Shown here: positions 3,232-31,200 of the stretch, piece after piece | How positions within the stretch are numbered: position 1 is the first letter of the stretch | Layout: each line of letters opens with the position of its first letter | IMG/VR virus record: IMGVR_UViG_3300043173_000426 | Span: 1 to 43,374 of that record | Direction: 5' to 3' (one strand) | From: a virus | Lineage: Duplodnaviria > Caudoviricetes | Length of the DNA stretch: 43,374 nt | Made by a program: the position numbers and the translations under genes | The notes under the pieces: model-generated | The model's database searches: none | What the model was told of the DNA's origin: nothing | Seen by the model: the letters and a program-made list of their open reading frames with translations, nothing else

Positions 3232-4195
3232 ATTTGAGCTCCAGTGACAAGGTGTGTGCGTGCGTGCCGTCTCCGCCGGTCGGTTGACTTTGCTCGAACG
3301 AGTTGTTGCCCAGGTAGATCGGGTTAGCCGCGGTCGGAATATTCACGAGGAACCGCGCGTTCTTGGTGCCGTGGGTATGCGCCGGCATTTCAGCGATGGT
3401 CAGTTTATGGGCGCCGGTCTCAAGGCCCGAACCGAACACGGTCAGGAAGTCTACCGAACCGCCTTGGCCGACGGCGGTCTCGGTGATGCGCAGCGCCCTG
3501 TCAGCAATCCCTGTTTGTTTCGTCCAGCCAAGCGGCGGGGCATCCTGGTTGAACAACATCCGGGTGCCTTGCTCGAACGAGTCGTTTAGCCCCTTCTTGG
3601 AGAAGTCGGCCGCGAGACCGTCGATGGCCCGCCAGTTGGTGGCCTTGTTGGTGATGGAGAGGAAGCCCACGGCCACGGCCGAGAGCCCCGAGTCGAGCAC
3701 GCCCGAGTCCCATACCACGGTGGCGGTGGTGACGGTGGTGAACGCACTCACGGTGATGCGCCCGTAGAGCGTGCCGGCAGAGACGACGGCGCGCACCCGG
3801 CGCCCCACCTGGAAGGTCGTGCGCTTGTCGCCAGCCACCGAGAAATTTGTGTCGTCGACGAAGGTCGGCGCTGAATCGGTGAACTCAGTCCATTCGTCAG
3901 GGATCGCAGCGGGGGCCACGAAGCCGACTCCGGCGATGTTGTCCATCGTCCATTGCACCGCACCGCTCGAATTACGCAGGCGGATCTTGTACTTGCCCTC
4001 GAGCCATACCTCGGCACGGCCGGCGGCATCGAGCACCACCGGGTTGGCATTGCTCACCCCGCCGGTGCCGTCGGTAAACGACGCCTTGGGGGTGGAGCTC
4101 CCTTCCTCGTAGGTGTCGAGCTGGCCGCCGGAGAGCGGTTCGCCATTGCTGTCGAAGGCCCGGAACATGGGATCGCCCAGGTAATGTACGGTCAT
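3200..4195 (-). CDS. Tail fibre/spike with N-terminal virion-binding domain
   Basis: FDSNGEPLSGGQLDTYEEGSSTP...NANPVVLDAAGRAEVWL is a typical podophage spike anchor. The C-terminus has a collar-like PPLGW segment and HKLTIAEMPAHTH/HAH motifs. Confidence 0.85.
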   Translation of the reverse strand: MTVHYLGDPMFRAFDSNGEPLSGGQLDTYEEGSSTPKASFTDGTGGVSNANPVVLDAAGRAEVWLEGKYKIRLRNSSGAVQWTMDNIAGVGFVAPAAIPDEWTEFTDSAPTFVDDTNFSVAGDKRTTFQVGRRVRAVVSAGTLYGRITVSAFTTVTTATVVWDSGVLDSGLSAVAVGFLSITNKATNWRAIDGLAADFSKKGLNDSFEQGTRMLFNQDAPPLGWTKQTGIADRALRITETAVGQGGSVDFLTVFGSGLETGAHKLTIAEMPAHTHGTKNARFLVNIPTAANPIYLGNNSFEQSQPTGGDGTHAHTLSLELKYVDVILAEKD

Positions 4196-7100
4196 TGCTC
4201 TCTCTCCAGTCGCTCGCGCATTTTACGCACGGTGCTCGGGCTCAGTGAATCGGCGGCACTCTTGAATAAGTTGTTTCGCTCGCGCAGGAGCGCCTTTTTG
4301 TCGCGGGTCTTATCGGCCACGCTCTTGGTCGGGTCGAGCCGATTTTGACGCAGGGCGCGGTTGATGCGCGTGGCTTGCCGGCTCATCGAATCCATCGTAA
4401 AGCGCAGACCGAACAGTGCCGCGCGCCCCTCTTGGTTGATGTAGACACCCGGATCACGGCCCTCGGCGCGGATCTTGTTGAACGTGTTCGTAATCAATCG
4501 CGTCTCCTGGCGGAGCTCGTAGAACTCATCTTCGTAAGCTGTTCGCCGAAGCGGCAGCGAGCGCGTGAACCGCCGGATGATCGGACGGTCGGCCCACTCC
4601 TTGGCCGGGCCGTCGGGCAGTTGCGCACTGATGAGGCCGTCGGTACCCATCGTCAGATACATCCCCAGGGTGCCCAGGTAGCCCCGCACGTAATGGTCGT
4701 ACAGCAAGGGGCTCATGCCGAGCTTCTCCCCCATGAAGATAGCCGTTTCGCTCGACCACGGCCGGAACTGCTCCGAGGCTTCGACTTTCATCAGATCGTC
4801 CGGGATCACCCGCCCGCCGGTAAAATTGCGGTTCCGCGCGTGATCCAGCATCGGGCTGAATATCTGCGGGACCGGCGCCATGTTGAGTTGCTCGGCGAGA
4901 ATCACGCCCACCGCGTCGGTGAACTGCTTGCCGTCGCGGTCCTTGATGAACTCCAGGATGCGCTCCGGGATGCTGGCCCATAGCATGCCGAGCTCGAAGG
5001 GTTTCGGGATAAGCCACGGCTGGTCGAAGCCCGGCACGAAGATCACCCAATGCAGATCCCGAACCCAATCCGGGAGCGCGTTGTAACGGTCGTCGTCCTG
5101 GTTGATCCACCAAAGCACCATCGACGGCAGCGTGAGGCCGAGCATACCGCGCATGAGGAGCTGGCCGGCGGCCTCGCCGCCCGGGAGGCCGGGGGCGCCG
5201 CGGGCCGTGGTTTGCCGACCCTTGGTCTCGTAGAGCTCGCGCTCGAGGCGGTACAAGCCCTGCATTCTCGCGTTGAGGAACGGCACGGTGGCGATGAAGT
5301 TGCGGATGAAGTCCCCAGCGCCGCGCATAGCGAAGTCCGTTGAAACCTCGCGGCCCCGGAACGCGGCCTCCTGGAGTGACTTGCCCTCCTTCACCGACGC
5401 CTTGAACTCCGCCAGGCGCGTGCCGTACTCGAACGCGCTGCCGACCTCGAGCCAGAAGTCGATCAGTTTGTTCGGCGTGTTGAGCACCTTCTCGAGCGTG
5501 ATCCCGCTTCGCAGATACAGCGTGGCGAGCTCGCGCCTGGTGGTCGCCGTCTCGCTGCGCACCGAGCTCGCAAAGCCGCCGCCGTTGGCGAGGAACAGCC
5601 AGTAATCATCGGATCGCTGCAGCCGGTCGATCAGTCCCCGGATGCTCGACACGAACGGGATCATATTGGATCGACGCAGTAGCCAGCCGCTCGCCGAGTC
5701 ACGCAGAAGGTTGGGAATAAAGAAGTCCGGCAGCGCCGTGACGCCGAAGGTCAGAGTGCGCTTGAAGCCCTGCATGATGCGGATCACGAGGTTCGTCGGC
5801 CGCCAGCCAAACGACAGCATGGCGCGCAACAGCATCGGATCGGCAATCTCGAAATACTCGCGCCGGCCGTTGAACATCACCGAGTCGATGTTGTCGCCGA
5901 TGGGCGCGTTGCCGAAGGTGAAGAATTTCATAAAGTCCCCGAAGTGGCGCTCGACTTCATCCTGAAACATCGTCGTGCCCTTGCCGCTAACCATGCCGGC
6001 AAGCGGCGTCCCGTCGGAGAGCACCACGCCCATGTCGTCGAGGATCCCCTCAATCTTGGCCGCCACCTGGGCCGAGTCGATTTTAATGACCTTGGTATCG
6101 CGCGGGATACGGGTGGCGAAGCGCGCCGCCCCCTGGCCGCGGCGGATGAGCCCGTAGACCTTTTGCTTGGCGAGGTTCTGCACCGAGAGATCCACGAGCG
6201 CGGCCGTCGACTGCATGATGTTGTTGTAAATGTCGTTGATGTTGGCGGTGCCGCCGAACAGGCGCTTGAACGCCGCGCGGTTGATGAACCGCTTCTCGCC
6301 GGTGGCGAGCTCCTGGATGCGATGGAACGGCACGTAGGACTTATTCATCTCCTGGATGAGCGCGCGGCTTTGCTGGGAGACGATGCCGGCCTCCTCGTAA
6401 AAATCCATCATCCGGTCGAGGAAAGCCTGATAGTCCTTGAACGCCTGGACGATGCGCGGGTTTTCCCTGCCCTGGCCGACAAGCGCCTGGAGCTCGCGCA
6501 CACCGAGGAGCTTCTCCCGGCCCTGGCGCTTGAGCTCCATGCCGCGCATGCCGGCGAAGTACGCCATCGTTTCGTCCATGACGTCGGCCACCGGCTCGAA
6601 CACCTGGCGGAGCCCCTTGCCGGTGAACACGATGTCGCCGTTGATCTGCAGCCCGATGGTGCCGTGCTTGAATACCGCACGCACCACACCGCGCACGCCA
6701 CGGATGAGGCGCATGACTTTGTACGGGGAGAGATCGGCGTCACCGATGTCGCCCTTGATGGTGCGCTCGAGGATCTTCACACCCTGGAGCTCGTCGAGCG
6801 TGTTCTCAATCGCCCGGTCGTCAAACTTGTCGGCGGTCTCCTCGAGCGCGAACCATAGATCCTGGACCCGCCCGCTGAACGTAGTGTCGGTGCCGATCTT
6901 CGAGAGTGCACGATTCAGCGCCCCCTGGCGGAACCAAGCGTGCATGTCGGCCTGGGCGCGAACTATCGCGTCCTCGAACTTGGACCCGCTGATGAGATTC
7001 ACGAACTCCTCGTAGAAACCTGGAGCGCGGGTGATGGCCTCCTCCTCCTGGGTGAGAAACAGGCGCAGGAACTCGGCGAATCCCTCCTCGAGTGATTTGA

Positions 7101-10100
7101 CGTCGTAGCTCAAGCCCCGTACTTCATCGCGGAATTGCTTCGAGCGGTAGGCGAAGGAGAAGCGCGAGTCGGTGTCGTCAAGGAAGTGGCCGAGCTCGTG
7201 GGCAACGACCTCGAGATCGTTGTTGTGCCGGATGCGGAGCTCCTCGATGTGGTCACGGTAGAACCCGAGGCGCGACTTTTGCCCCTTCACGCGGCCCTGA
7301 TAAATCTTGATGCCGAGATCGCGCTGCACGCGGGCGAGGATGCGCTCGCGCCGCAACGGCTTGTCCGGGGCGATGGGCGTCTTGAGCTTGCCGAACCCGG
7401 ATGGCGGCTTTTTCGGTGCCCCTGGTTGCGGCTCCACCAGCTGGGCCTCAACGATGAACCCCTTGTGCTTGACGCCAGGCTGCGCCGCGCGCGTGCCGGG
7501 GCCGAGGGCGGCACCGACGGCGGCCGGCGTTGTTTGGCTGATGCGGAACATGATCGCGCGCGTGGCATCGAACTGGAATCCGAACTGCCGATAGAACTTC
7601 TCGAGGCGCTTCTGCGCCCCCGTCGGGGTGAGGTTGGGCCCGCGTGGCGTGAAGTCTCCGGGTGCCTGTGGCATGAGCGTCACGGTGCGCCCGAAGCGGT
7701 CAGCGTGCACGATGAGCTGCCCCATGAAGCGCGTCCCGACGCCGGCGCTGCGGGCCTTGCGCGGGAGCTCCACCAGGTCGAGCGACAGATCGCCGTCCAT
7801 GTCCTCGGTGATCTGCACCGTGCCGCCGGCCTCGATGATGGTGCGGCGCACGAGCTCGAGGCTGCGCTCCTCGAGATCGACCTCGGGCTCCAACCCCGGG
7901 GGCACGTCCGTCATGTCGAAAGTTGGAGGCACCCCGCCGGCATGCGAGGGTTTTATCAGCGCCCAACCCTTCTCACTGAACGAACCGATGCCGGCGTCGG
8001 CGGCGTTGGAGATAAACGCATCGAGAACTTCAATCTGACTGCTTTTCAAGAACGTGCCGACATTCAGGATCGCCGCTATTTGCTCAGACAGGATTGTGGG
8101 AACGGCGCTCGGGCCGCTATGGATGATGGCGGTGGCGGCGTTGTGCTGAACGATGGCCCGGGAGAGCCGACTCGCGCCGGTACGAATGTCGTCAGTGCGC
8201 AAGCGGGCCATCTCCTCCAGGCTCATTTCAAGGAACACGAGCGGCACGTTTTGATTGTCCAGCAGGACCACCCCGTCGGGATACTGCTCTTGGATTTTCT
8301 TAACGATGACCCGGCCCTTGTCGGAGCTATTGATAGGACCGAGCTCCTGTTCGGCGCCTCGCACGCGGCGGATGCGGCGTTCGACGACAGGGATAGGCAC
8401 GTTGCGGCGGCCTGGTGGGATCGGAACACGTACCTCCGGCCGGAGGAGATCCAACTCAACCGGCAACACGCTGGCGCTGCGCACATCCGGGGCAACGACA
8501 ATACCGGCCATCACCTGGATGCCGGTGCCGCGGAGCAATTCAGCGAGCGCGGCGGTGGTGTTCTTGTCGGCCGTGCTCTGCTTGAGCCCGCCCGAGGGAT
8601 GGTTGTGAGCGAACCACACCTTGGCTGCCCCGGGCGTCTCGAGCACGGAGCCGGCCACGATTCCGGGATCGGTATCGGCGGTGGTGCCGGCCGCGACGTC
8701 GGCGATAGAGCCGGCAACGAGAGCCTTATCCACCTGGGCGGCGTTCACCCGGCCGATGGAGTGGCGGATGATGCGGAGGATCTGGCCATTCTCGTTCGTC
8801 ACCAGCGCGATGAACGACTCCTGAGCATCCTTGCGGTGCGGCGCGACGACGTGCACGGCATCCTCGATAGTGACCACCCGAGAGATGGCGGAATGGAAGG
8901 TGCCGGTGCGTACCTGTTTCACGCGGGGCTTGCCCAGGCCGGGCACGACAGCGGTGCCGGTGCCCGTCGGTTTAGCGGCGGCCTTTTTCAGTGCGGCGCC
9001 GAGAACAGAAGGGCCCTTGAAAATCTTGTCCTCATCGAGACCTTTCGGCTTCGGCTTGCCCTCGGGGGCGAACAGATCGAGCTGCCCCTCGGCCTCGAGC
9101 TTCTCTTTGTCGGTGAGCTCGTCGCCGTTCTCATCCTCCCTGACGACGTAGGTCGTTCCGCCCTCACTGACGATCCCGGGGCCGTCCGTCTCGATGTCCT
9201 CGCCCCCGGGCTTGTTCATCTCGACGATGCGGCCCTCGACGTTGCTGCGCTGCGTGACCGTGCGATCCGCCAGCTGGCCCGACTCGAGCCCGACGACGGT
9301 GCCGCCGTTGTCCTCGAGCCATTGCCGGAACTCGGTCTCTACCTTGCCCTTGGAAAAGAAACCGTGCGCGCTCATCACGGCCACCAGGCGCCCGCCGGGC
9401 TCGAGAAGCTCCCAGGCATGGCGAACGTGCGCGATGTCCTGGTTGTTCGAGAACGGCGGGTTCATCACGATGATGTCGTGCTTGGTGCGGTACTCCAGGA
9501 AGTCCCGTTGAACGACCTTGACGGCGTGCTTGTGGGCGAGGGCGCGCGCCTGGGCATCGAGCACCTTGACGAGTTGTGGGCTGCGCTCGAGGGCGGTGAT
9601 GGTGATGTCGTCGAAGCCGGCGTAAATCTCCGCCATCTGTTCGACGATGTTGCCGGAGCCGGCGGATGGCTCGAGCACGGAGTCGCCCGGTTGCCCCTCC
9701 TGGGCCGGCTGGGCGTCGGCCTGCTCGACGAGCTCACCAGCGAGATCGGAGGGCGTCGGGAAGAAGTCGATCCCGACTCCCTTCACCCCCACCAGGTCGC
9801 GCTTGAGTTTGTCGAACTCGCGGCGTGCCGTGATGATGGGATCGGTGGTGGGGCCGGCGGCCTTGAGCGAGATCAGCGCGGCCCGCGCCTCCTCCCACTT
9901 CTCTTGAGTGCGGAGCCCTGCGTTCTGAGCCCGCTTGTGCGCCTTCTCATCGAACTTCCCCGTCGGGACATTGACCGAGCGGAGATCCTCGACGAGGGCC
10001 TTCGATTTGACGTTCGCCAGGATGATGGGCAAGGAGCCATCTTCGACGGCATCGGCCATCGCGCGCAGGTTGGCCTGGATGCTCTCGAGGCGCCGGCCGT

Positions 10101-13100
10101 CGGCGTGCATCGAGTCGATGATGCGGGCCCGCCTGGGCGTCAAGTTCTGGCTGGCGGTGCCCGGGTCCATCTTCGCGTCGATCTGCTTCTGCATGTTGTC
10201 GGCGGTCTTGCGAAGCGAGGCGGCGACTTTCTGACTGCGCGCCTTGTCGAGCGCCCGGGCCTTCGCCGTGCTCGGCAGCTTGGCCTCGACCTCGAGATGG
10301 CGGGCGGCGAGCTCCACCTGCAGCGCCCGGAGCTCGAGCGTGATGGCGGCGGCGTTCTCCTCGCGCTCGGCCTGGGGTGCGCTCACATCGGCGAGCGCCA
10401 AGCCTATGCGCTCCTGGGCATTGCGGAGAGCCGCGACTATGACGTTACCCTCGCGCGTTCCTCCCGGTTCACCGCCCGGTTCACCGCCCGGTTCGGCTGC
10501 CGGAAGCCCCACCGGCAACTTCTCGGCACGGGCCTCCAGCTTGCCGATCTCCCGGCGAATATCCGCCATGTCCTCCTCGGCGCGGTGCCGGAGCCTGGTG
10601 GCTTCGAGCTTGGAGAGCTCGGGGTCTTTGGTGAGCTGGCTTATGTCGATGGCCGCGTCACGGAGCTCCCCCTGCAACACCGCGATGGACTGCTCTATGC
10701 TCTCGCGCGTTTCGCCGCCTGGTTCGCCCGCTGGTCCGACCGGACGAACTCCTGCGCCACTGTCAGGCTCGGGCACTTCACCCCGCGGGCCTTGGCCTTC
10801 GTCCTGCCCTCCGGGGAGCTGCACATCCTCATCAGTCGCGCCTGGGCTTGGTTCTTGCTCGGCATCGGTTTTCTCCTTGTCCTTCTCGGCTTGGGCCCGG
10901 CGCTCAGTGATGCCCGCCACGATAGCCTGCTGATCCCGGACACGAGAGCGGGCGACCTGGAGGAGCTTCTTGTCGGGTTTCTTTTTCTCCCGCTTGGCTT
11001 CGGCGAGGAGGTTCTTCACCGCGGCATGCGCTTCAAGGAGCCGGCGCTGCTCAGTGACGAGACGATCCTCCGCCGGCACCTGGGGCGTGACCGGCTTCCG
11101 GCCAGGCGGAACGTCGGTCAGCAAAGCCTCGGGACCGAACACCAGCCGGACGGCCTTGCCGAGCTCCGCCTTCGGAGCGTCGAACGTCACCTCTGGCGCC
11201 AGGGCTTGCGCAAGGTTGGCGATGGACAGGTCATTGGTTGTCTCGCCGACGGCCTTGGTGAGCTGGGTGGCGCCTTCGCTGCCAGTGGGGAACGCCTGGT
11301 TGATGGTGGCCTCGAGCTCGGCGGCTTCGCGCTTGCGCCGCTTCTGCTCCCCGGGAGCGAGCGCACCGATGGGCGGCGCCTCCAGCCGTGGGCGATCCGT
11401 GTCTTTTACTGTCTTTCCGAAGATGGCAGCGAGGCGTGTGCCGATCTTGCCCGGAGTCAAGCGGAGCGATTGCTCAGGACCGAACGTGATCACCACGTCC
11501 TTGCCCTGGGCAAAGACCGTCACGGAACCCTCGGTCTCCCGGCGCTTGACGCTCATGCCCGGCGATCCCTTGGTGATGATAGCGGCGAGCTCGGTGGCCT
11601 TCGCGTTGCGGGCAATCTCGCGGCGAATCTGCTTGATGTTCCCCGTCGTGATGCCGGCCAGCGCCGCGATCATCTCGTCGAGCTCCTGGTCGGTGAGCTC
11701 GGGCTGCTCCTCGACGGCCTCCTCGACCGCGCCCTCGGTGATGGCGGTGGCCAAGTCCTCCATCGCCTTGGCGGCAGGCACGTCGCCAGCCGCGAAATCG
11801 GGGGCGAGCTCGCCGGCCCGGATGGCGGCGGCAATGTCGTTGAATCCCTCGCGGAGCTCGGCGCGCAGCGCCTCATCCGGCGGCGCCACGAGCTCGCCGG
11901 CCACCGCGAGCTCCTGGGGCGTGTCCTGGTCCTCGACCTCGAGCGTCAGGTTATCGAGGATAGTCTCGTGGAGCTCGAGCTCGGCGAACGCCTTATCGAG
12001 CACCCGGAGCTCTAAGGCGTTGAGGGTGATGAGCTGTTCGCCACCTTGCGTGACTTTGCCGCGCGCTTGCGGCTGCGCCCCGGTGGGAGCGGGCGGGGTC
12101 GGGGCGGCACCCGGAGCTGCGCCTCCTGGCTCTCCAGGAGGTTGCCCTGGTGGAGCCCCAGGAGCAGGAGCCGGTTCAGGAGCGCCAGCCGGCGTGAGTC
12201 TCGGGGGGTTGGCCCCGAAGAAGTCCGGGATCGTGCCCCCGGCGGCCTTATCTTCTTGGGCATTGGCTTTCTCTATCTCACGGTTGGCGGCGGCGAGCAA
12301 GTCAGAGAGGCTCGCGGCTTCATCCCCGAATATGTCCTCGGTCTGCTGGCGGGCGACTTCCACCTGGAGGAACTCGGCGATAGTGGAGAAGGCGCGGCCC
12401 ATGCGCTCGGCGCTGCGGATGTTGGCCGCGATGAAGCGCGCGAAGCCGACGGCTTCCGGGTCGCGCTCGCCGAACAGGTCCGACTGCTCGAGGAGCTGCT
12501 CGATGGTTCCGCCCTTGCGCTGCTGCTCGCGGATCATCTCGATGGCATCGGTGAGCTTCTGCGGGATGTTGAGCCCGGCCAGCTTCTCGTCGATGGCCTT
12601 GGCCTTGGCGAACGCCGGCGCCGCGGCCTGGAGGGCGGCCAGGATGTTCTTGATCTGCGGGTTGGCCGATTCCGCCTGCAGCGCGATCAGCCGGTCGTCA
12701 CCGTAGACCCGGGCGAAGATGGCCGAGTTGATACGGTCGGCGAGCTGCTTGGTGGGCCGGCCCTGGTCGTCGATGAACTGGGCCGACTCCTCGGCACCGA
12801 TGGCGGCGAGAAAGCGGCGCAGGAAGGGCTCATTGCTGGCGGCGAGCGGGTCGCCCGACTGGTCCGGGTTGAACAGCGCCAGATCGTCGTCGGTGAGCCG
12901 GGCGGCGTCGGCACGGGCGGCCTCTGCCGGCGAGAGCTCGAGCCCGACGGGCTGGTTGGCCTGGCGGGCGAACTCCTCGAGCTCTACCTCATCGCCGAGG
13001 AAGCGCACCAGGAAGGGATCGGCCTGGGCGTTCACATCCCGCGTGCCCACACCGACGGCGGTGGCCATGCCCGGCAGGGCTTCCCGGAACGCCTCGCCGC

Positions 13101-15411
13101 GCTCATCAGTGAGCGCCTGGCGGGCGGCGATGGTGCGCGCGTTCCCGCTGATCACGACGTTCTGCATGATGGGCTTGCCGTTGGCATCGAGCACCGGCTT
13201 CCCGTCGGCGTCCTCCTTCGGCATGCGCCTCACAATCGGCGCACCGTCGGTGACGTTGGGCGAGTCGCCGAGGAGCTCGGGATTCAGGTTGCCGGCAATC
13301 TTCGCTATCTGGACGGCCGAGGCTTTCTTGCTGCGGTCACGAGGCTGGAGACGGGCAGGGAAATCCGGGTTGATGTTGCCTTGGTCGTCGTGGCTGGTGA
13401 CGAGCTCGTTCACGTCAACCACGCCGAACTCGACTGCCACCTTGTCGCCGCGTGGCGTGAATACGGTGCGCTTGGTGCCGGTCGGCTTCGTCACCTGGTC
13501 GGCGGCGATAGCGGCGGCTTCCTCCTCGGTGGGCGGCGGTGGCACGGCAGCCTCTCGACGGGCAGCCTCCTTGGCGGCGGCGTCCTGGGCAGTCTCCAGC
13601 GTGACGCGGGCACGGCTCTCCTCGGGGGTCTCGCGCGGGAAGCCTGGAGGCTCCGGGGCCGGCGGCGTACCGGGAGGCTGGTCGTCGCTGGGCAGGAAGC
13701 CGCCAGGGGTGGCGATGGCGGTGGTGGTGCCGACGATGAGGCCGATGCCGGCGGATTCGGCCGTGCCCTGGAGGAGCGGATCGCCTTCGGCCACGTTGCC
13801 GATCACCTGCTGAAAGAACTCTTGGGCGCTCTCCCCGACGCCGGTCAGGGTCACGCGAGCGAACTGTAACGCCTGCTCACCGAACAGGCCGAAACGGTTG
13901 AACAACGTCACCACGGCGGCGTTCTGGATGAACACTTCGTCGGCACGCCGCTCGGCCTCCTCGGGCTTGATGCCCTGGTCTACCAACGACTGGAAGGTGC
14001 CACCGGCTTCGGCCATAGCCTCCAGGACGCCCGACGCGGCGGCGCCGGCCCACATGGCGGCGGCGTAGGACATTTTGGCGAGAGCTGCGACTCCTTTGGC
14101 GATGCCGATACCGGGCGCCCAAAAGACGGCGCTCGATCCGAAGCCGGCCATCGTTTTCTCGATGAACTCCGGGCTGGGCGGCATGAGCCCCTCGGCGATG
14201 CCCTGCGCTGTCAGGGCCCCGGACTTGAGGGCCTCGATGTTGGTCTTGTTCCCCAGGAAGCCGACAATGCCGCCACTCACGGCCACGGCACCGGACGCGA
14301 GCCCCCTGGTGCGCCGCTCGCCGGCCTCGCCTGGCGTCTGGTCGAGCGGCCCGAAGGCTTCCATCACGTCCTTGAGGATCTCCGGGTCGTTGGTGTGCTG
14401 GGCAGCGAACAGCGCGAACGCCACCGGGATCGCGTTCATCACCTGGGCGGTGGCGTCACCGAGGAGCGTGCCCTCGCCGATGATGTTCTGCGGGAACGCC
14501 TGGCGGGCGTCGGCCGCCTGCTTGGCGGTCTGCTTCTCGTTGTCGCCGAGGATCTCGCGAGTGCGCTTGGCTACGTCCTCCTTCGTGCGGAAGGCGCGGC
14601 GGGCAACACGCTCGTCGGGCTGGGCGCCGGTGGCGAACCGAGTGAGGGCCTCGAGCGCCTGGCCGCCACGGATGGCCGGCTGGAGGTTCGCGCCCGTGAG
14701 CTGCGCCTCGGGGGTGCCGGGTTCGCCAGGGAGCTCGAGGCCGGTCAAGCCCTCGGTCGAGGGTGGCTGCGCCGGGCCGGGCTGCTTGGCAGCGGAGCGA
14801 GCTCGCGCAGCTTGCTCGGCGGCTGGGATGCTCTCGAAAGCGGGGAGCTCGGCGCCCTCGGCAACGCGGGCCTTCGCACGCTCGATGGCGATGCGCTGCT
14901 GCTGGTCGGATACCCGCTCACCCCGAAGTAGCGCCTCGACATCGACCTGGCCGCGCACCAGGCTGGGGATGTTGGTGGGTGCGCCCTGGTTGAGCTCCGG
15001 GTCGGTGACGGTGATGCTGATCTCGGTGGACTGCTGACCGTCAGGGCGATCCAGTCTGCCGAGCTCACCCTCCAGGGCAGACGGCGCCGTGGGGATACCT
15101 GGGGGCGCCTGGGGTGCGCGTGGCTGCGTCTCCCGGGCATGCGTGGGGATTTGTGCCTGTGAAACCCCCGGCCTGCCTGGTTCTCCTGGATCCTGTATGG
15201 GGGTTTGCGAAGGCGCTGCAACACCGGGGGAACCCGGGGGCAATTCCGTCTGGAGCTCCGGCCCACCGATGGCCTCGAAGAACGGGCGAATCAGTACCGG
15301 CTCATCGCTCTCCTGGGCGAACTTGCGGCGTAGACCGTCGGCGATCTCGAAATCACTGAGCTCCGAGAACTCAGGGTGCCGGTGGCGAAACTGCTGGAGG
15401 GCGGTTGCCAC
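4192..15411 (-). CDS. Giant polyvalent ejection (internal virion) protein, 3739 aa
   Basis: It is the third gene of the ejection cluster and has a GTG start. Motifs: ParB-like (LQPRDR, GAPIV, SGNART), MTase (LEPSAGSG, NPPF), JAB (HNHPSG), GNAT, HELGH zincin, and an LPD38-like C-terminus. Confidence 0.9.
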   Translation of the reverse strand: MATALQQFRHRHPEFSELSDFEIADGLRRKFAQESDEPVLIRPFFEAIGGPELQTELPPGSPGVAAPSQTPIQDPGEPGRPGVSQAQIPTHARETQPRAPQAPPGIPTAPSALEGELGRLDRPDGQQSTEISITVTDPELNQGAPTNIPSLVRGQVDVEALLRGERVSDQQQRIAIERAKARVAEGAELPAFESIPAAEQAARARSAAKQPGPAQPPSTEGLTGLELPGEPGTPEAQLTGANLQPAIRGGQALEALTRFATGAQPDERVARRAFRTKEDVAKRTREILGDNEKQTAKQAADARQAFPQNIIGEGTLLGDATAQVMNAIPVAFALFAAQHTNDPEILKDVMEAFGPLDQTPGEAGERRTRGLASGAVAVSGGIVGFLGNKTNIEALKSGALTAQGIAEGLMPPSPEFIEKTMAGFGSSAVFWAPGIGIAKGVAALAKMSYAAAMWAGAAASGVLEAMAEAGGTFQSLVDQGIKPEEAERRADEVFIQNAAVVTLFNRFGLFGEQALQFARVTLTGVGESAQEFFQQVIGNVAEGDPLLQGTAESAGIGLIVGTTTAIATPGGFLPSDDQPPGTPPAPEPPGFPRETPEESRARVTLETAQDAAAKEAARREAAVPPPPTEEEAAAIAADQVTKPTGTKRTVFTPRGDKVAVEFGVVDVNELVTSHDDQGNINPDFPARLQPRDRSKKASAVQIAKIAGNLNPELLGDSPNVTDGAPIVRRMPKEDADGKPVLDANGKPIMQNVVISGNARTIAARQALTDERGEAFREALPGMATAVGVGTRDVNAQADPFLVRFLGDEVELEEFARQANQPVGLELSPAEAARADAARLTDDDLALFNPDQSGDPLAASNEPFLRRFLAAIGAEESAQFIDDQGRPTKQLADRINSAIFARVYGDDRLIALQAESANPQIKNILAALQAAAPAFAKAKAIDEKLAGLNIPQKLTDAIEMIREQQRKGGTIEQLLEQSDLFGERDPEAVGFARFIAANIRSAERMGRAFSTIAEFLQVEVARQQTEDIFGDEAASLSDLLAAANREIEKANAQEDKAAGGTIPDFFGANPPRLTPAGAPEPAPAPGAPPGQPPGEPGGAAPGAAPTPPAPTGAQPQARGKVTQGGEQLITLNALELRVLDKAFAELELHETILDNLTLEVEDQDTPQELAVAGELVAPPDEALRAELREGFNDIAAAIRAGELAPDFAAGDVPAAKAMEDLATAITEGAVEEAVEEQPELTDQELDEMIAALAGITTGNIKQIRREIARNAKATELAAIITKGSPGMSVKRRETEGSVTVFAQGKDVVITFGPEQSLRLTPGKIGTRLAAIFGKTVKDTDRPRLEAPPIGALAPGEQKRRKREAAELEATINQAFPTGSEGATQLTKAVGETTNDLSIANLAQALAPEVTFDAPKAELGKAVRLVFGPEALLTDVPPGRKPVTPQVPAEDRLVTEQRRLLEAHAAVKNLLAEAKREKKKPDKKLLQVARSRVRDQQAIVAGITERRAQAEKDKEKTDAEQEPSPGATDEDVQLPGGQDEGQGPRGEVPEPDSGAGVRPVGPAGEPGGETRESIEQSIAVLQGELRDAAIDISQLTKDPELSKLEATRLRHRAEEDMADIRREIGKLEARAEKLPVGLPAAEPGGEPGGEPGGTREGNVIVAALRNAQERIGLALADVSAPQAEREENAAAITLELRALQVELAARHLEVEAKLPSTAKARALDKARSQKVAASLRKTADNMQKQIDAKMDPGTASQNLTPRRARIIDSMHADGRRLESIQANLRAMADAVEDGSLPIILANVKSKALVEDLRSVNVPTGKFDEKAHKRAQNAGLRTQEKWEEARAALISLKAAGPTTDPIITARREFDKLKRDLVGVKGVGIDFFPTPSDLAGELVEQADAQPAQEGQPGDSVLEPSAGSGNIVEQMAEIYAGFDDITITALERSPQLVKVLDAQARALAHKHAVKVVQRDFLEYRTKHDIIVMNPPFSNNQDIAHVRHAWELLEPGGRLVAVMSAHGFFSKGKVETEFRQWLEDNGGTVVGLESGQLADRTVTQRSNVEGRIVEMNKPGGEDIETDGPGIVSEGGTTYVVREDENGDELTDKEKLEAEGQLDLFAPEGKPKPKGLDEDKIFKGPSVLGAALKKAAAKPTGTGTAVVPGLGKPRVKQVRTGTFHSAISRVVTIEDAVHVVAPHRKDAQESFIALVTNENGQILRIIRHSIGRVNAAQVDKALVAGSIADVAAGTTADTDPGIVAGSVLETPGAAKVWFAHNHPSGGLKQSTADKNTTAALAELLRGTGIQVMAGIVVAPDVRSASVLPVELDLLRPEVRVPIPPGRRNVPIPVVERRIRRVRGAEQELGPINSSDKGRVIVKKIQEQYPDGVVLLDNQNVPLVFLEMSLEEMARLRTDDIRTGASRLSRAIVQHNAATAIIHSGPSAVPTILSEQIAAILNVGTFLKSSQIEVLDAFISNAADAGIGSFSEKGWALIKPSHAGGVPPTFDMTDVPPGLEPEVDLEERSLELVRRTIIEAGGTVQITEDMDGDLSLDLVELPRKARSAGVGTRFMGQLIVHADRFGRTVTLMPQAPGDFTPRGPNLTPTGAQKRLEKFYRQFGFQFDATRAIMFRISQTTPAAVGAALGPGTRAAQPGVKHKGFIVEAQLVEPQPGAPKKPPSGFGKLKTPIAPDKPLRRERILARVQRDLGIKIYQGRVKGQKSRLGFYRDHIEELRIRHNNDLEVVAHELGHFLDDTDSRFSFAYRSKQFRDEVRGLSYDVKSLEEGFAEFLRLFLTQEEEAITRAPGFYEEFVNLISGSKFEDAIVRAQADMHAWFRQGALNRALSKIGTDTTFSGRVQDLWFALEETADKFDDRAIENTLDELQGVKILERTIKGDIGDADLSPYKVMRLIRGVRGVVRAVFKHGTIGLQINGDIVFTGKGLRQVFEPVADVMDETMAYFAGMRGMELKRQGREKLLGVRELQALVGQGRENPRIVQAFKDYQAFLDRMMDFYEEAGIVSQQSRALIQEMNKSYVPFHRIQELATGEKRFINRAAFKRLFGGTANINDIYNNIMQSTAALVDLSVQNLAKQKVYGLIRRGQGAARFATRIPRDTKVIKIDSAQVAAKIEGILDDMGVVLSDGTPLAGMVSGKGTTMFQDEVERHFGDFMKFFTFGNAPIGDNIDSVMFNGRREYFEIADPMLLRAMLSFGWRPTNLVIRIMQGFKRTLTFGVTALPDFFIPNLLRDSASGWLLRRSNMIPFVSSIRGLIDRLQRSDDYWLFLANGGGFASSVRSETATTRRELATLYLRSGITLEKVLNTPNKLIDFWLEVGSAFEYGTRLAEFKASVKEGKSLQEAAFRGREVSTDFAMRGAGDFIRNFIATVPFLNARMQGLYRLERELYETKGRQTTARGAPGLPGGEAAGQLLMRGMLGLTLPSMVLWWINQDDDRYNALPDWVRDLHWVIFVPGFDQPWLIPKPFELGMLWASIPERILEFIKDRDGKQFTDAVGVILAEQLNMAPVPQIFSPMLDHARNRNFTGGRVIPDDLMKVEASEQFRPWSSETAIFMGEKLGMSPLLYDHYVRGYLGTLGMYLTMGTDGLISAQLPDGPAKEWADRPIIRRFTRSLPLRRTAYEDEFYELRQETRLITNTFNKIRAEGRDPGVYINQEGRAALFGLRFTMDSMSRQATRINRALRQNRLDPTKSVADKTRDKKALLRERNNLFKSAADSLSPSTVRKMRERLEREQ
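4250..5500 (-). other. LPD38-like domain of the giant protein (approximate bounds)
   Basis: EYGTRLAEF...REVSTDFAMRG...VPFLNARMQGL...IPKPFELG pattern typical of large polyvalent protein C-termini. Confidence 0.7.
6950..7370 (-). other. Zincin-like metallopeptidase domain of the giant protein (approximate bounds)
   Basis: RLGFY...VVAHELGHFLD...EEGFAE (HExxH plus downstream Glu). Confidence 0.75.
7550..7860 (-). other. GNAT acetyltransferase-like domain of the giant protein (approximate bounds)
   Basis: ARSAGVGTRFM (motif A-like), HADRFGRTVTL and LEKFYRQFGF. Confidence 0.75.
8010..8900 (-). other. Tandem JAB/RadC-like domains of the giant protein (first with HNHPSG, second degenerate)
   Basis: QESFIAL...WFAHNHPSGGLKQSTAD, followed by a similar unit VVLLDNQN...NAATAIIHSG...IEVLDAFI that lacks HxH. 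Confidence 0.75.
9210..9780 (-). other. N6-adenine DNA methyltransferase domain of the giant protein
   Basis: DFFPTP, VLEPSAGSG (SAM binding), IVMNPPF (catalytic motif IV) and LEPGGRLVAVM. Confidence 0.88.
12350..13470 (-). other. DdrB-like ParB-superfamily domain of the giant protein (approximate bounds)
   Basis: LVTSHD...NPDFPARLQPRDRS...GAPIV...VISGNARTIA...FARQAN. Confidence 0.75.
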
Positions 15412-17672: not shown

Positions 17673-18025
17673 GGGACGAACACCAGGATCCGGTAACTCG
17701 CGTCGGTGACAACGATTGCGCCGGCCGTCGGGTTGGTGGCGCGCACGGTGACGGTATCGGGCGCGCTCACGTAGCCGTCGAACAACACAGCGCCCGGTGA
17801 GGAGACCGTCGTCACCACGACTGCCGCGCCGACCAGGGCGCCCGCTATCGTGACGAGCTTCTCGGCCATGCCATGAGCTGCCACGTTGCCGAACGCGAGG
17901 GTGCGAGTGGCGGTAAATTCCTCGGCCAACCCACGCAATGCACGCTCCACTTGGCTCTGCCAGGTGCCGAATACGCGCGGCTCGAGCTCGGTGCCTTTCC
18001 GCGGGCTCGAGATTTTAATGCCCAT
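17669..18025 (-). CDS. Small beta-rich tail protein (needle/knob position)
   Basis: Translationally coupled between the gp10-like and gp14-like genes. The C-terminus is beta-rich (GYVSAPDTVTVRATN). Confidence 0.65.
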   Translation of the reverse strand: MGIKISSPRKGTELEPRVFGTWQSQVERALRGLAEEFTATRTLAFGNVAAHGMAEKLVTIAGALVGAAVVVTTVSSPGAVLFDGYVSAPDTVTVRATNPTAGAIVVTDASYRILVFVP

Positions 18026-19575
18026 CAGCTCGCCTTGAGCTCCATGCCCACAATCACCCGCTTCACGGGATCGGTGACGGTGAGCTCGTACACGCGGTCC
18101 CGTGCCCGGCCAAGAGATCGCCAGATGGCCCGGGCGCGCCGTTGGCCGATCTTGCCGATGCTCCGCCAGTATTCATTGCTCCAGGTGCCGCCGCCGTCAT
18201 TCGACCAACGCAGCATCGCCTGGGGGTCGGAGCCCTGGCCGTTGGCGAGGCCGACGCCGGCCTCGAACACGACTTGCAGCGAAGCGTGCCCGATGATCCG
18301 CTCCGAGTCATGGATATGATAGCCGCGCGCTTTCAGGTGGATCTCCTCACCAGCATCGTCGAACAAGCCGGCGGCCTGCTCCCACAGATTGCCGGCGGTG
18401 TAGTCGCTGACCAGGTGCTTGTTGAGAAAATAGATATGGTGCTGGGGGACGAAGCGTGCGCCGGCGCCGGTCTTGAGCTCGTGCCATTCCTTCTCACGCA
18501 CATCGTAGGCGAACGCCTGCTTGCCCGTGGGGAAACTCAGCACATAGAACTCACGGCCCCGGTCCACCATCACCCAGGCGATGGCATCGGTGGAGAGCGA
18601 GTAGCCGGCAATGGCCTCCTCGATGGCCTCATTGCTGATGCGAACGGGTTGATAGTTGACGAAGCTGATCACCTGGATGGCGCCGTGATCGTCGACGGCA
18701 AGGCATACCAGCGTGTCGGCGTAACGCGAGACACTCCACGGCGCGTGAACGCCCCACTGGATCTTGGCGCCCTGGAGACGCTCGAACGTGAAATCGGCCT
18801 GTCCGGTGTTTTGCCACACTTCGGTCGAGCGGTCCCCGAACAGCCAGAGCTCCCCGTGGTCGGCGACGACATTGCGCAGCTTGTCCGGGTCGGACTCGGC
18901 GCTGGCGAAATCGAGAGCGTTCCAGGAGGCGCCGTCTTTGAGCGAGCTCACATACCACTGATCGGTGCCCTCATCGTTGACGATGAAAAAGCCGTCGAGG
19001 TAGGTGACATGGGTCGGGCGCGCGGGGAAGTCCGGGTCGGTAATGCGGGCGAGCTCGCCGCCTTCGATGATGGCGACGACGGCCGGGGCCGCCAGTGTGA
19101 TGGTGAGCTCGAGCGCCGGCACGTCGACGGTGGTTGACGTCATTACCGACGGGGTTTGCAGGGCCAGGGGCAGGAGCAGGAGCGGCGTCTCGAGGGTGAT
19201 GGCGCCGAGCTCCACGCCGGGAAAAATATAGCCGTTGCTGCCATCGACGATCATGAGCTGGGTGCCGTTGTCGTCCATCGACACAAAGCCGGACTCGCTC
19301 AACAGCAAGCCGGCAACGAAGCTCACACCGTCCGGGCGGATAACCTCGAGTCTGTCCTGGAACACGGCATAGGCGCGGTTCCCGAACTGGTGAACGCCGC
19401 GGGCCGGGAGCTCGCCCCAGTTGCCGAACGGTTTGAGTCCGGGGCGACCGTAGATGGCTCGGACGCTCTTGGCATTGCGGTTGGTCGCCGTCTCAATGTA
19501 GCAATTCACCAGCGTCTCGGTGTCGACGGCGAATGACTTGCCTTGCTTGAAGCCGGCGGCAAACGGCAGGAGCAT
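18025..19575 (-). CDS. P22 gp10-like tail nozzle / packaged DNA stabilization protein
   Basis: VSMDDNGTQLMIVDG, YLDGFFI, DFASAESDPD, LRWSNDGGGTWS and WRSLG motifs. Confidence 0.9.
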   Translation of the reverse strand: MLLPFAAGFKQGKSFAVDTETLVNCYIETATNRNAKSVRAIYGRPGLKPFGNWGELPARGVHQFGNRAYAVFQDRLEVIRPDGVSFVAGLLLSESGFVSMDDNGTQLMIVDGSNGYIFPGVELGAITLETPLLLLPLALQTPSVMTSTTVDVPALELTITLAAPAVVAIIEGGELARITDPDFPARPTHVTYLDGFFIVNDEGTDQWYVSSLKDGASWNALDFASAESDPDKLRNVVADHGELWLFGDRSTEVWQNTGQADFTFERLQGAKIQWGVHAPWSVSRYADTLVCLAVDDHGAIQVISFVNYQPVRISNEAIEEAIAGYSLSTDAIAWVMVDRGREFYVLSFPTGKQAFAYDVREKEWHELKTGAGARFVPQHHIYFLNKHLVSDYTAGNLWEQAAGLFDDAGEEIHLKARGYHIHDSERIIGHASLQVVFEAGVGLANGQGSDPQAMLRWSNDGGGTWSNEYWRSIGKIGQRRARAIWRSLGRARDRVYELTVTDPVKRVIVGMELKAS

Positions 19576-26764: not shown

Positions 26765-27067
26765 CTATAGCCCTCGCATCACACTACCCGGGAGTCTGTC
26801 CGGGTAATCCCGGTCGTACTCTCGCATGACGCCCTCCGTCACGGCGCGCGCTTGCCCTGGGCCCGCCAGGAAGCGGTGATATTTCGCTTCCGGGAACTCG
26901 AGGGTGACGGCGAATTGACCGTGAATGTCTGAGAAAACGGAGCGTGTCACGCGCGCGAGATCCTGAACTCCGTGCATCTGGAGAGCGGCCTCAATCGCGC
27001 GTTTCACAGGAATCGACGCACCCAGCGAGGAGCCGGATGGTCCTGTAACGACGTTAGAAATTTCCAC
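26765..27067 (-). CDS. Hypothetical protein
   Basis: 100-aa ORF tiling the late operon. Confidence 0.55.
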   Translation of the reverse strand: MEISNVVTGPSGSSLGASIPVKRAIEAALQMHGVQDLARVTRSVFSDIHGQFAVTLEFPEAKYHRFLAGPGQARAVTEGVMREYDRDYPDRLPGSVMRGL

Positions 27068-27362
27068 CTGGTTGTACCGTGAGCTCTACTGCCGGTTCGG
27101 TCTCGTGAGTGTGGCCCGACGTATCGAGCATTTTGCACCGGATGGCGTAACGGATCTTGGCCCCGATGGCTGGCGCGGTGATGTCGACGACGGTCTTAGT
27201 GCCCTGCACCCGGAGGTTCGAGAACGTCGGGCCGGCGGGCTCCGCAGCCCAGGCGACGGTGCAAATCCTGGCACCGCGCAGCGGCGCACGCCACTCGAGA
27301 AAGTGTTCGCGGAGCTCGTTGGAACTCATGTCGCTCCAAACTCTCGGGCGGGGGGTTGCCAT
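27054..27362 (-). CDS. Putative fibre-tail adaptor (single beta-sandwich domain)
   Basis: AGGAGG RBS. Paralogous to the N-terminus of 27412..28257. Confidence 0.6.
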   Translation of the reverse strand: MATPRPRVWSDMSSNELREHFLEWRAPLRGARICTVAWAAEPAGPTFSNLRVQGTKTVVDITAPAIGAKIRYAIRCKMLDTSGHTHETEPAVELTVQPGGNF

Positions 27363-27411: not shown

Positions 27412-28257
27412 TCACGGGATCCACCAGATGTTGAGCTCAGGGCCGAAGCTCTTACAGTGCGTCCCGACCGCAGTCTCGATCAATTCATCGGTCGCCGTGA
27501 TCCTGATCTCGAGCGTGAAGTCTGTCGGTGTTGGGGTTTCAGAGCGGGCGTCTGTATTTTTATTCCAGTCAATGGTCGTATAGCCGTCGGGCGTTGGAAA
27601 AGCCCCCTCCGGGCCTGGCCCGCATTCGGCCGGATTGAACGGATAAGTCGTTACATCGTTGAACTGCGAGCTCACGTCCTCACTCAGAGTTTCCCAGGGC
27701 CCACCGCCGGAAATTATGACCACCTTGGTCAATGACCAGTCGCGCTCAAAAGTTCGGTTGCCGAAATCCACCAAGCGAATCGTGTGAAAGGCGCCCGGGG
27801 CGCGTTCGGATTCGTAAGAGAATCCCACGCTCGGCACCGATGGTTCTGGTGTGTCCGGGTTGTCGAATGCCGGCGCGAGCAACACCAGACTGAGGATTTT
27901 GGTCGGCACTTCGAGCAGCGGGCAATTCATCAACAGCACACCGTCGTAGGTGCCGCCAGGAGTGACGCGGAGCTCGAGGGGCGGCTCGGTCTCGTGGATG
28001 AAGCCGGCAGAGTCCGTCAGTTTGCAATGCACCAGGTAGTCGATTGTCGCCCGAGAGCTCGGCGCGCTGATGTCGACCAGCGTGCGGTCCCCGTCAATCG
28101 TCAGGTCTGTGAAAATGAGCCCCGGAGGATCAGAGATCCAAGCAACGGAGCCCGGGGTGATCGTCGCTCCCTTGAGCGGTCCCCGCCAGTCGAGCTCGTG
28201 GGCCCGGAGCATCGAAGGCGTCAAATCCGCCCATCCCCGTGGCCGTGGTTCAGGCAT
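27412..28257 (-). CDS. Putative fibre-tail adaptor domain fused to a C-terminal extension
   Basis: The first ~104 aa align by eye with 27054..27362. The linker LLEVPTKILSLVLLAPAF resembles one rope repeat. Confidence 0.6.
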   Translation of the reverse strand: MPEPRPRGWADLTPSMLRAHELDWRGPLKGATITPGSVAWISDPPGLIFTDLTIDGDRTLVDISAPSSRATIDYLVHCKLTDSAGFIHETEPPLELRVTPGGTYDGVLLMNCPLLEVPTKILSLVLLAPAFDNPDTPEPSVPSVGFSYESERAPGAFHTIRLVDFGNRTFERDWSLTKVVIISGGGPWETLSEDVSSQFNDVTTYPFNPAECGPGPEGAFPTPDGYTTIDWNKNTDARSETPTPTDFTLEIRITATDELIETAVGTHCKSFGPELNIWWIP

Positions 28258-31200
28258 CAGCCAGCCCTCGCCTGGGTCATGGTGCTGCCGGCGGTTGCGG
28301 TAATCATTTTCGATCCGATAGCGCCGTCGAGCATCGTCGAGCCCACCGATATTGAAAGCAGCGCAACCCCATCACCGGCAGAGGTCGGAACCCCTGCAAG
28401 GGCGACCGGCGGGAACAGCACCAGGTTGAACGTCTTGAGTGCCGCCTCCACCACCACCAGGTTGGGGTCGGCCACCACGCTTGGCGCGAACAGTTGCAGC
28501 GAGAGCGTGCGCAGCGGCGCCGTCACCAGGGCGCCCCTGGCGACCGTCGGCGCGAGGAGCGTGATGGTCTTGGTGAGCAGCGGCGCCTCGAGCACCAGGT
28601 CGTCGAAAGCCGCCACCGTCGGCGTCAGCAACGTCAACGTCAGGGTGCGCAGCGGCGCCTCGACGACGAGCTCGATCTCCACCGTCGGCGCAAAGAGCTC
28701 GAGGGGGAACGATTTCAGCGGGGCAGCGATCCCGGCACCGGCCGCCACCGTGGGCTCGAGCAGGTTGAGGAAGAAGAAGAAAACGTCGGGCACCAGGATG
28801 GTGTGCGAGGGCGCGAACAGGGTCAGCGTCAGGGTGCGCAACGGGGCCTCGACCACCGTGTTGGTGACACCCGAGAACACGCTCGGTACATGCAGGGTGA
28901 GCGTTTTCGAGAGCAGCGGGACGGCGATGGCGCCCACGGTCGGGGCGAACAGCACCAGGCTCAGGGTGAGCGCCTGGGGCCTTATGGTGACGCCGCCGGC
29001 GCTGACCGTTGGCACCAGGAGCTCGAGCGGGAAACTCTTGAGTGGCGTGTCGACGCGGATGCCGGCGAGCGATGGCCCGAACAGGGTGAGCGTCAGCGTC
29101 TTGAGCGGGGCCTCGAGCTCCACCCCCTGGGCGGTTTCCACCGACGGCTCGAGCAGGGTCAGCGTCAGCGTGGCGAGCGGGGCCGTGACCAGCGCGCCGA
29201 TCCCGACCGTCGGCGTTCCGAGCGAGAGCGTCAGGGTCTTGAGCGGGGCCGCTACCGTGACGCCGGTCTCGGCGGCGGGCTCGAGCAGGGTTAGCGTCAG
29301 GGTCTTGAGCGGGGCGTCGACGGTGACACCCGTGAACAAGGCCGGCGTCAGTAACGTCAATGTCAGGGTCTTGAGCGGGGCGCTGGCCGTGACGCCGGTG
29401 TGCACCGCCGGCGTCAACAGCGACAGCGTGAGCGTCTTGAGAGGCGCGCTCGCCGAAGCACCGCCGGCCACCGAGGGCACCAAGAGGGAAAGCGTCAGGG
29501 TACCCAGCGGCGCAACCACCGTGACGCCGGTGTGCACGACCGGCGTCAGCAAGGTCAACGTCAGCGTCTTGAGCGGCGCCTGGACGACAACACCGAAGCC
29601 CACGGCCGGGGTGAACAAAGTCAGCGTCAGCGTCTTGAGCGGCGCGGTCGCGGTGACGCCCGTGTGCACGTCGGGGGTCAACAGGGTGAGCGTGAGCCCC
29701 AGGGCCGGAGACGTCAGCGCCACCCCGATGGCCACCGAGCTGGGCGTGAGCAAGGTGAGCGTCAGCGTGCGCAGCGGCGCCGCTACCGTCACACCGCTGG
29801 CTACCGTGGGCACCAGAAGCGTCAATGTCAGGGTCTTGAGCGGCACATCCACGGCCACCCCGAAATTGGTCGATGGCGTGAGCAGCGTCAGGGTGAGAGT
29901 GCGCAGCGGGGCGACCACCGTGACGCCGGTGTGCACGTCGGGGGTGAGCAGCGTGAGCGTCAATCCGAGAGCCGGTGACGTCAGCGTGACGCCGATCCCC
30001 ACCGAGCTGGGCGTCAGGTTGACCAGGGTCAGGGTGTCGAGCGGAGCCAACACGGTGACGCCGGTCTCGACCGCCGGCGTGAGCAGCGTGAGCGTCAGGG
30101 TGCGCAAGGGCGCATCGACCGCCACACCGAAGTTGGTCGATGGCGTGAACAGCACCAGGGTGAGGGTGAGCAGCGGCGAGCTCGTCGAGGCGCCAGTCTC
30201 GACGGCCGGCGTCAGCAAGGTGAGCGTCAGCGTGCGCAGCGGCGCCTCGAGCTCGACGCCGGTGGCCACGGAGCTCGGGGTGAGCAGCGTCAAGGTCAGC
30301 GTATTGAGCGGCACCACCACCGTGACGCCGGTCTCGAGGGCGGGCACCAGGAGGGTGAGCGTCAACGTGTTGAGCGGGGGGTCGACCGTGACGCCGGTAT
30401 TCAGGGCCGGGGTCAGCAGCGTCAACGTGAGGGTTTGCAATGGCGAGGTCGCAGACACCCCTATTGCAACCCCTGGCGTCAGCAGCGTGAGCGTCAACGT
30501 GTGGAGCGGGGTATCGAGGGCGACCCCCGTGAGGACCGCCGGCGTCAACAACGTCAGGGTAAGGGTACGGAGCGGCGTGTCGACGGTGACGCCGGTGTGC
30601 ACGGCGGGGGTGAGCAGCGTCAGGGTCAGAGTGGCCAGGGGCGTGTCGACCGTGACGCCGGTGTGCAGGGCCGGCGTGAGCAGGGTGAGCGTCAAGGTGC
30701 GCAGCGGCGCCTCGAGCTCGACGCCCGTCGCCAAGGAGCTCGGGGTCAAGAGCGTCAGGGTCAGAGTGCGCAGCGGCGCCTCAATGGTTACTTCGGCGCC
30801 CTGGGCTACGTCGGTAAACGTCGGCGTGGAGGTGTAGGTTGCGAACGCCGTGCCGTCACCCTCGACCACGCGCAGCTTAATGTCGTCGAGTTCAAGCAGG
30901 TCGGCGGAGATCAATAAAAACGAAACCTCGGCCTCGATAATGTCGCCGACCGTGAAGTCAACGGGGAGCTGGAATACGCCGGTGGACTCCTCGGCGGCGT
31001 TGTTGTTGGTGATGAGCGTGTCACCCCCACCCAGCAGTTTGACCGCGCAATCATCCCCATCCGCGTACCAGGCGGTCGCCCGGGTCTGGACGTTGCTCGA
31101 GCTCGCCGTCACGTCTTGCCAGGCGTCGGCGTTCTTCTGCGATTGCCACTTGAACGACGGCGTGGTGGCGGTGGCGACCGTGATTTTTATCTGCACGCGG

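Follow-up and report, generated by a model that had tools for sequence, protein, structure and literature searches.

The tail nozzle protein of an uncultured P22-like podophage carries, inside a single propeller loop, two tandem copies of the repeat that makes up a separately encoded rope protein of the same phage. We propose that each copy docks the 144-aa bead protein by beta-augmentation, and that the six nozzle subunits would thereby display a skirt of ~12 bead dimers, a reading to which we assign a probability of about 0.7. The window, that is, the whole stretch of DNA analyzed, is a complete virus record of 43,374 bases. Its minus strand encodes portal, coat, scaffold, gp4-like adaptor, nozzle, and ejection proteins, while a fiber module upstream of terminase holds the 144-aa protein (phrog_644), a 1130-aa repeat protein, and a related pair measuring 281 and 102 aa.

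The nozzle gene (18025..19575, minus strand) encodes an intact single chain of 516 aa, a tail nozzle/head-closure protein of the P22 gp10 type that matches phrog_578 (E 1.6e-104) over positions 6–469 of 486. The AF2 model (pLDDT 90.7) has the fold of the P22 gp10, Pam1, and Pan3 nozzles, with Foldseek matches to Pan3 (9vyg_M, E 3.4e-33) and P22 (9jg6_a, E 1.1e-28) and a propeller/platform fold comparing with 9jg6_a at TM 0.78/0.86. The gene also occupies the place of a gp10-type nozzle, after the coat and gp4-like adaptor and before the ejection proteins. We treated an antisense ORF at 18142..19137 (plus strand) as a shadow of the nozzle gene, which is rich in GC. Elsewhere in the window, 4192..15411 (minus strand) encodes a 3739-aa polyvalent protein with ddrB-ParB, methyltransferase, RadC/JAB, and LPD38 domains, whose orthologue in the relative G001 is a 3025-aa frame; several central regions have no match.

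Alignment with homologues revealed that the nozzle carries a true insertion, as the first-pass annotation had proposed. Among the best 120 of 1281 matches, query included, the flank-to-flank segment measures 76–86 aa in eight nozzles, one of them the query, and 22–32 aa in the other 112, giving a net insert of ~50 aa relative to the insert-less homologues. In the window, the insert region runs in frame from Gly-120 to Gly-172 (19060..19218, minus strand; net 50 aa), of which the peptide originally quoted covers Gly-120 to Ala-168, and it lies between propeller strands 115–119 and 177–178. AF2 modeled residues 120–175 as coil with pLDDT 55–65, a low value that is partly an effect of alignment depth, since the insert is covered in just 8 rows out of 116. 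Within the best 120 matches, all eight insert-bearing nozzles fall in one 12-row branch together with four insert-less proteins. In a tree of the top 30 nozzles with the insert removed, a single origin was not rejected (p-AU 0.385), and the tree also fits one gain plus one loss. A region search for further insert-bearing nozzles added none among 586 candidates, and no cultured phage with the insert appeared among the records examined (best identity 37%); the extra residues of the one long cultured-collection homologue that was checked sit elsewhere in the protein.

The loop that holds the insert is a general insertion hot spot or display site. It exceeds 36 residues in 15 of 150 representatives (50% clustering); 14 of these carry unrelated inserts of 37–298 residues, and only one (P0007) carries the rope pair. 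Pfam provided no name for any of the 13 unrelated inserts scanned, and independent grafts of the rope motif in other nozzle lineages were found neither in the 150 representatives nor in the nozzles of the fetched loci. Approximately 50–270 extra unrelated residues occupy the same loop in P0260, P0317, P0319, P0324, P0326, P0336, P0338, P0339, P0362, P0368, P0373, and P0378. The place of the loop in the blade and its tolerance of inserts suggest that it faces outward.

The rope protein (28257..31649, minus strand; 1130 aa), likely a tail fiber, consists of ~38 repeats of 22–24 aa with a non-repeat domain at about residues 125–285. A PSSM built from 38 of its repeats located two units in the nozzle insert, repeat 1 at residues 125–144 (19144..19203, minus strand; 25.3 bits, 0/2000 shuffles) and repeat 2 at residues 147–166 (19078..19137, minus strand; 24.2 bits). 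The second follows the first by 22 aa, which is the period of the rope itself. For comparison, the rope repeats scored 18.6–61.5 bits (median 50) when left out one at a time. None of 2000 shuffles of the query insert reached its best single or its summed score. All eight inserts contain exactly two repeat units, and their summed scores were likewise unmatched by 2000 shuffles each; the best single score was unmatched in six inserts and was reached by 3/2000 and 7/2000 shuffles in those of P0005 and P0009. The motif is absent from all 112 insert-less nozzles, where the best window scored −4.9 bits. These data bear out the original suggestion that the insert reads as two copies of the rope consensus and scores better than shuffled sequence.

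Scanning the phage proteins with a profile of the repeats, as had also been advised, gave a mixed result: the HMMER profile ranked the nozzle as the top non-rope match in the window, but weakly (E 0.058), and the collar fusion described below reached only E 4.9. Taken by itself, the nozzle value over the window would be compatible with a chance likeness of Leu/Thr/Pro-rich sequence. This explanation was ruled out by the composition-preserving shuffles noted above and is extremely improbable, given also the exact period and the rarity of the pattern P-x3-hydrophobic-x-[LI]-x-hydrophobic-x2-P, which occurs in 3 of 712 window ORFs, namely the rope (37), the nozzle (2), and the collar fusion (1). 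Further searches linked the two proteins across phages. With the rope alone as query, tblastn picked out nozzle inserts on two further contigs (E 1.2e-6 and 5.1e-5), nozzle residues 118–168 in reverse found the G001 rope (E 4.8e-5), and a PSSM trained on the repeats of other phages scored the window nozzle copies at 17.9 (repeat 2) and 4.1 bits. At the DNA level, the best candidate source of the insert in the rope gene was 76% identical over 54 bases, which is not decisive. PDB sequence searches with the rope and the repeat profile gave nothing significant, and an ESM Atlas search with rope residues 284–500 returned only unnamed clusters under 0.9. The ropes at 28257..31649 of the window, L139:8751-10727, and L142:6885-10973 contain ~38, 26, and 33 repeats, respectively; their inserted domains differ, and they share the same 45-aa non-repeat C-terminal tail, a candidate anchor.

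A third virion protein carries the repeat. The window encodes two proteins resembling the GP4 gp77 fiber–tail adaptor, or collar: a solo collar without a repeat (27054..27362, minus strand; 102 aa; ESM Atlas 0.91, TM 0.77) and a collar fusion (27412..28257, minus strand; 281 aa) that joins a gp77-like domain, 49% identical to the solo collar over ~100 aa, to one rope repeat and a distal domain. PF23148 scored E 0.014 on the solo collar and E 1e-5 on its G001 orthologue, neither reaching the cut-off, and E 0.0058 on the G001 orthologue of the fusion. Among 13 GP4 and KPP25 proteins, our own collar profile matched the GP4 93-aa protein at E 8e-4. The single repeat in the fusion (residues 112–131; 27865..27924, minus strand) scored 14.6 bits, with 0/2000 whole-protein shuffles as high; across all 712 six-frame ORFs, only two windows outside the rope scored better, and the next one below it reached −1.0. 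A repeat occupies the corresponding position in the orthologues from G001 (18.9 bits) and, more diverged, from G005, so that the further single copy noticed in this adaptor fusion at first pass stands. The distal part swaps among these proteins, being an unnamed domain here, LamG-like in G001, and DUF7483-containing in G005, while the gp77-like domain and the single repeat are kept (window 27412..28257; L007:816-2339; L142:10977-13790). We regard the distal part as a candidate receptor-binding cassette.

The putative partner of the repeats is the bead protein (34483..34917, minus strand; 144 aa), which matches phrog_644 at E 4.6e-21, a widespread unannotated family with an estimated ~980 stretches in the viral collection. 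Its AF2 model (pLDDT 95.9) has the fold of the GP4 gp80, garland, and arm-segment proteins. Superposition by VIA on the GP4 fiber I chain 8jou_a gave Z 8.3, near the level that VIA grades as middling, and an rmsd of 3.3 Å over 119 of 136 residues, in agreement with the gp80-like fold expected of a bead. Other VIA matches were a 1031-aa baseplate chain of phage KP1 (Z 14.0), which we take to be T4 gp7-like, a Bxb1 tail-tip chain (9d93_Ra, Z 9.8), PhiKZ gp139 and a baseplate chain from phage 812 (Z 5.3, 9euf_b among them), and a 7-7-1 tail-fiber entry (Z 4.8). Foldseek paired the bead with GP4 gp80 at probability 0.75 and E 0.23 and gave no match at E under 0.001. By sequence, the bead matched none of the GP4 or KPP25 proteins (E 0.26), and PDB searches with the bead and its profile returned nothing significant. 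A 105-aa Cys-rich protein (phrog_18929; 35227..35544, minus strand) adjoins the bead gene in the window, as it does in G001 and G005.

Insert, rope, and bead occur together where they can be examined. The complete independent relative G001 has the insert, a 26-repeat rope, a bead, and a tagged collar, and every insert-bearing record that reaches the fiber module (the window, its near-copy L002/L048, and G001) has rope, bead, and tagged collar. As G003 and G004 are fragments, two independent genomes (the window and G001) are long enough to test rope and bead, and both agree with the predicted co-occurrence; in the genomes open to testing, no insert was found in a phage devoid of a rope. The closest insert-less relatives (P0008 and P0010-12) were left out of this comparison, not being placed in any genome. 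Of nine insert-less records searched whole, one (G007) has a bead; it has a rope as well, so both can be present in a phage that lacks the insert. Of the 78 bead loci, 47 encode a protein with the motif (at least 15 bits), and the opposite strand gave none; this count is partly circular because the general PSSM was trained on those loci, many of which are near-copies or short. In other nozzle loci, the motif appeared in 1 of 36, and that locus contains a bead. The general PSSM does yield false positives, with one opposite-strand match of 16.8 bits in 26 further loci, and PSSMs miss other dialects, such as a 21-aa array beside the bead in L023.

Arrays of this 21-aa dialect, which do not contain the second proline, lie beside bead genes at L023:1385-2959, L104:13898-15421, and L075:7850-9418. 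In a P22-like phage (L015:3114-8132), the nozzle is split between an ORF of 508 aa, which includes a large unrelated region, and one of 433 aa; these are followed by a bead and then by a 314-aa protein with four N-terminal rope repeats (27–32 bits, 0/1000 shuffles) and a segment that looks needle-like by eye. Locus L062:3849-9284 combines an insert-less nozzle and a bead with an ORF of 290 aa, a post-nozzle protein that bears five repeats. The C-terminal parts of these two repeat proteins are weakly similar to each other, and the PDB gives no support for labeling either one a needle. The neighbor of a bead gene at L116:2111-4675 encodes ten repeats joined to an M14 zinc carboxypeptidase domain. 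The cultured cyanophage Pam1 (L144:7866-9003; gp9, gp10 region) has a bead homologue (E 8e-6) directly after its nozzle, and its gp10, homologous to the Pan3 needle (E 2.4e-7), has 50 additional residues at the N terminus, in two strand-like units. The satellite phage MiniFlayer (L145:5186-9997; gp6, gp8) encodes a bead homologue together with a protein of 1376 aa whose repeat-like strands follow a different dialect. Pam1 gp10 and MiniFlayer gp8 look repeat-like by eye but serve as leads at most, as 26–726 of 1000 shuffles scored as well.

Conservation within the insert is limited to the motif positions. In 16 copies from eight nozzles, Pro-6, Leu-8, and Pro-17 are kept in every copy, and positions 10, 12, and 14 are always hydrophobic. 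Identity to the query is 25–67% within the insert compared to 62–90% in the rest of the nozzle, and dN/dS against three relatives is 0.20, 0.46, and 0.57 in the insert compared to 0.06–0.12 outside it. All eight nozzles, with identities as low as 57%, keep two copies and the motif positions, and the remaining positions change freely. Such a pattern would be the signature of a candidate binding motif. It also argues against the insert being a tolerated passenger, in which recombination would have brought two rope repeats into a permissive loop, where they serve no notable function. This possibility arises from the 14 of 150 representatives in which the loop accepts unrelated inserts, and it is in line with an insert dN/dS 3–5 times that of the rest of the gene, with the four close relatives that have no insert in a tree that allows loss, and with G007; we judge it very unlikely in view of the two copies and motif positions retained amid free change elsewhere.

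The nozzle repeats follow the dialect of their own clade. Position 14 is Leu in the nozzle inserts, as in 37 of 38 repeats of the window's own rope, rather than the Gly that is commoner in other phages (123 of 192 repeats), and from this sequence comparison the inserts appear to use the form of the own-clade rope. The match to the rope consensus is nevertheless partial: at position 8 the nozzle copies always have Leu, and at position 15 they carry small residues, whereas the rope has Arg/Lys at position 8 in 24 of 38 repeats and Leu/Phe at position 15 in 36 of 38. Given these differences, and scores at half the rope median, the partner or the affinity may differ. Conceivably, the strands bind something other than the bead, such as each other (in a hairpin or an inter-subunit sheet), the rope, or the collar. 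We consider this quite unlikely: the rope itself includes an Ala-Leu variant at positions 7–8, AF2 predicts no structure in the insert alone (at the shallow depth already noted), and only one bead-like gene was found in each of the window and G001.

Our preferred reading therefore keeps the bead as partner of the nozzle repeats. A single copying event would have carried the repeat from the rope gene to a loop in which many inserts are tolerated. The insert would stay extended until beads bind, with its prolines and alternating Leu/Ile/Phe residues facing the bead groove, and each repeat would pair, as one more strand, with the edge strands of two bead chains, in the manner of phages A1002 and 812. 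Two repeats on each of six nozzle subunits would give ~12 bead dimers. This decoration of the tail periphery may provide surface contact or tie the rope and collar fibers to the tail; the repeats are presumably no core part of DNA gating. As judged from the distribution of the repeat, one small bead protein likely clips onto several parts of the particle (rope, nozzle, and collar).

The number of beads follows from analogy. In Pseudomonas phage A1002 (PMC13730344), residues 243–468 in gp39, its nozzle-rope protein, carry 11 dimers of gp40/gp41 by beta-augmentation, that is, ~226 residues at ~20 per dimer. By this measure each repeat probably takes one dimer, and each nozzle subunit two, which makes the one dimer per subunit envisaged in the first-pass annotation doubtful. 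A variant of the same explanation retains that count, with both repeats wrapping a single dimer, one per edge strand, for six dimers per tail. Such an arrangement suits an insert that has to start from and come back to a single hairpin, and in phage 812 scaffold strands run between the C-terminal strands of neighboring dimers, a dimer offering two edges (PMC13433997). However, the A1002 ratio and the spacing of the two copies at the rope period oppose it, and a strand capped on one side would have its hydrophobic face half open; we consider the variant unlikely. A broader and tentative extension of docking at one dimer per repeat, which we hold to be somewhat unlikely as a whole, treats the 22-residue repeat as a transplantable address tag placed on rope, collar, nozzle loop, and, in other phages, the post-nozzle gene, at each of which bead dimers would polymerize. 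The twelve nozzle tags would nucleate a closed 12-dimer garland (six dimers within subunit loops and six bridging neighbors), bead links would join nozzle, collar, and rope in one lattice, and each bead lineage would read its own dialect. If true, the tags and beads would form a natural set of orthogonal peptide–protein connectors.

Beads-on-a-string strand docking is already known, and what we describe is a variant of that design; the internal two-unit graft and a repeat common to three virion proteins appear to be new, as far as the literature searched goes. The understanding of podophage tails is unchanged by the finding. What it adds is a code that can be read from sequence for a structural theme so far met one cryo-EM map at a time: a short motif would predict the sites and number of bead dimers from the genome alone. 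It also names a candidate partner for phrog_644 and shows how tail decoration can evolve by the copying of 66-base units. The small peptide–dimer pair is also a possible display connector.

A shared strand-donation code across distant virion proteins had been put forward as not known to be described, which overstates its novelty, since scaffold strands that thread dimers of this fold are published for A511, phage 812, and GP4 and a nozzle with a rope has been solved in A1002 (PMC13730344). The BW3 chain of A511 runs across gp105 dimers, gp105 accepting His-tags as a strand (PMC10811340); scaffold linkers complete seven-stranded sheets between dimers in phage 812 (PMC13433997); and the gp80 fold of GP4, like the phage 812 arm segment, is threaded by scaffold strands (PMC13730344, PMC13433997). 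Similarly, T4 gp8, A511 gp105, phage 812 gp118, and the Milano and 7-7-1 garland proteins form dimers strung on an extended core-tail chain (PMC10811340, PMC13433997). As far as those texts describe them, these are myophage baseplates with single scaffold proteins, in contrast to the one repeat tag found here on several unrelated virion proteins. Within the literature searched, with most subscription papers and supplements outside it, neither a two-unit graft inside an intact gp10-type nozzle nor a single repeat code common to rope, collar, and nozzle was reported. The nozzles of P22 (gp10), Sf6 (gp8), Pam1 (gp8), and Pan3 (PF11134, phrog_578) share fold and gene order with the one described here; they differ in that the motif is absent from the 112 insert-less homologues and that other lineages place unrelated domains in the same loop.

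Fiber I of Ralstonia phage GP4 has gp80 dimers on a rope and gp77 as a 15-fold adaptor (PDB 8JOU), with five dimers per fiber (cited in PMC13730344). The same three parts are present here, namely a gp77-like collar, a bead of gp80 fold, and a separately encoded rope, the last with the ~20-residue period of a GP4-type rope (~38 repeats of 22–24 aa). In contrast, the repeat sequences are unrelated, the GP4 nozzle has no such motif, and the collar gene is duplicated here, with one copy bearing a repeat and a distal domain. A scan for the rope repeat in 13 GP4 and KPP25 proteins gave best scores under 2 bits, not above shuffles; KPP25 proteins stood in for those of A1002, as their lengths equal those of A1002 gp39–gp42. 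The link to the solved systems rests on fold and architecture because neither repeat nor bead has sequence similarity to GP4 or KPP25, and by analogy the system likely works like the GP4/A1002 type, sharing fold and parts, with no sequence link detected. The A1002 nozzle-rope protein is the nearest precedent. There, too, the nozzle supplies extended strands for dimers of gp80 fold, an arrangement predicted here from sequence and fold; A1002 uses a split nozzle and one long 11-unit rope that forms the fiber itself (PMC13730344), whereas the present phage combines one intact 516-aa chain, with two units in a propeller loop, and a separate 38-repeat rope.
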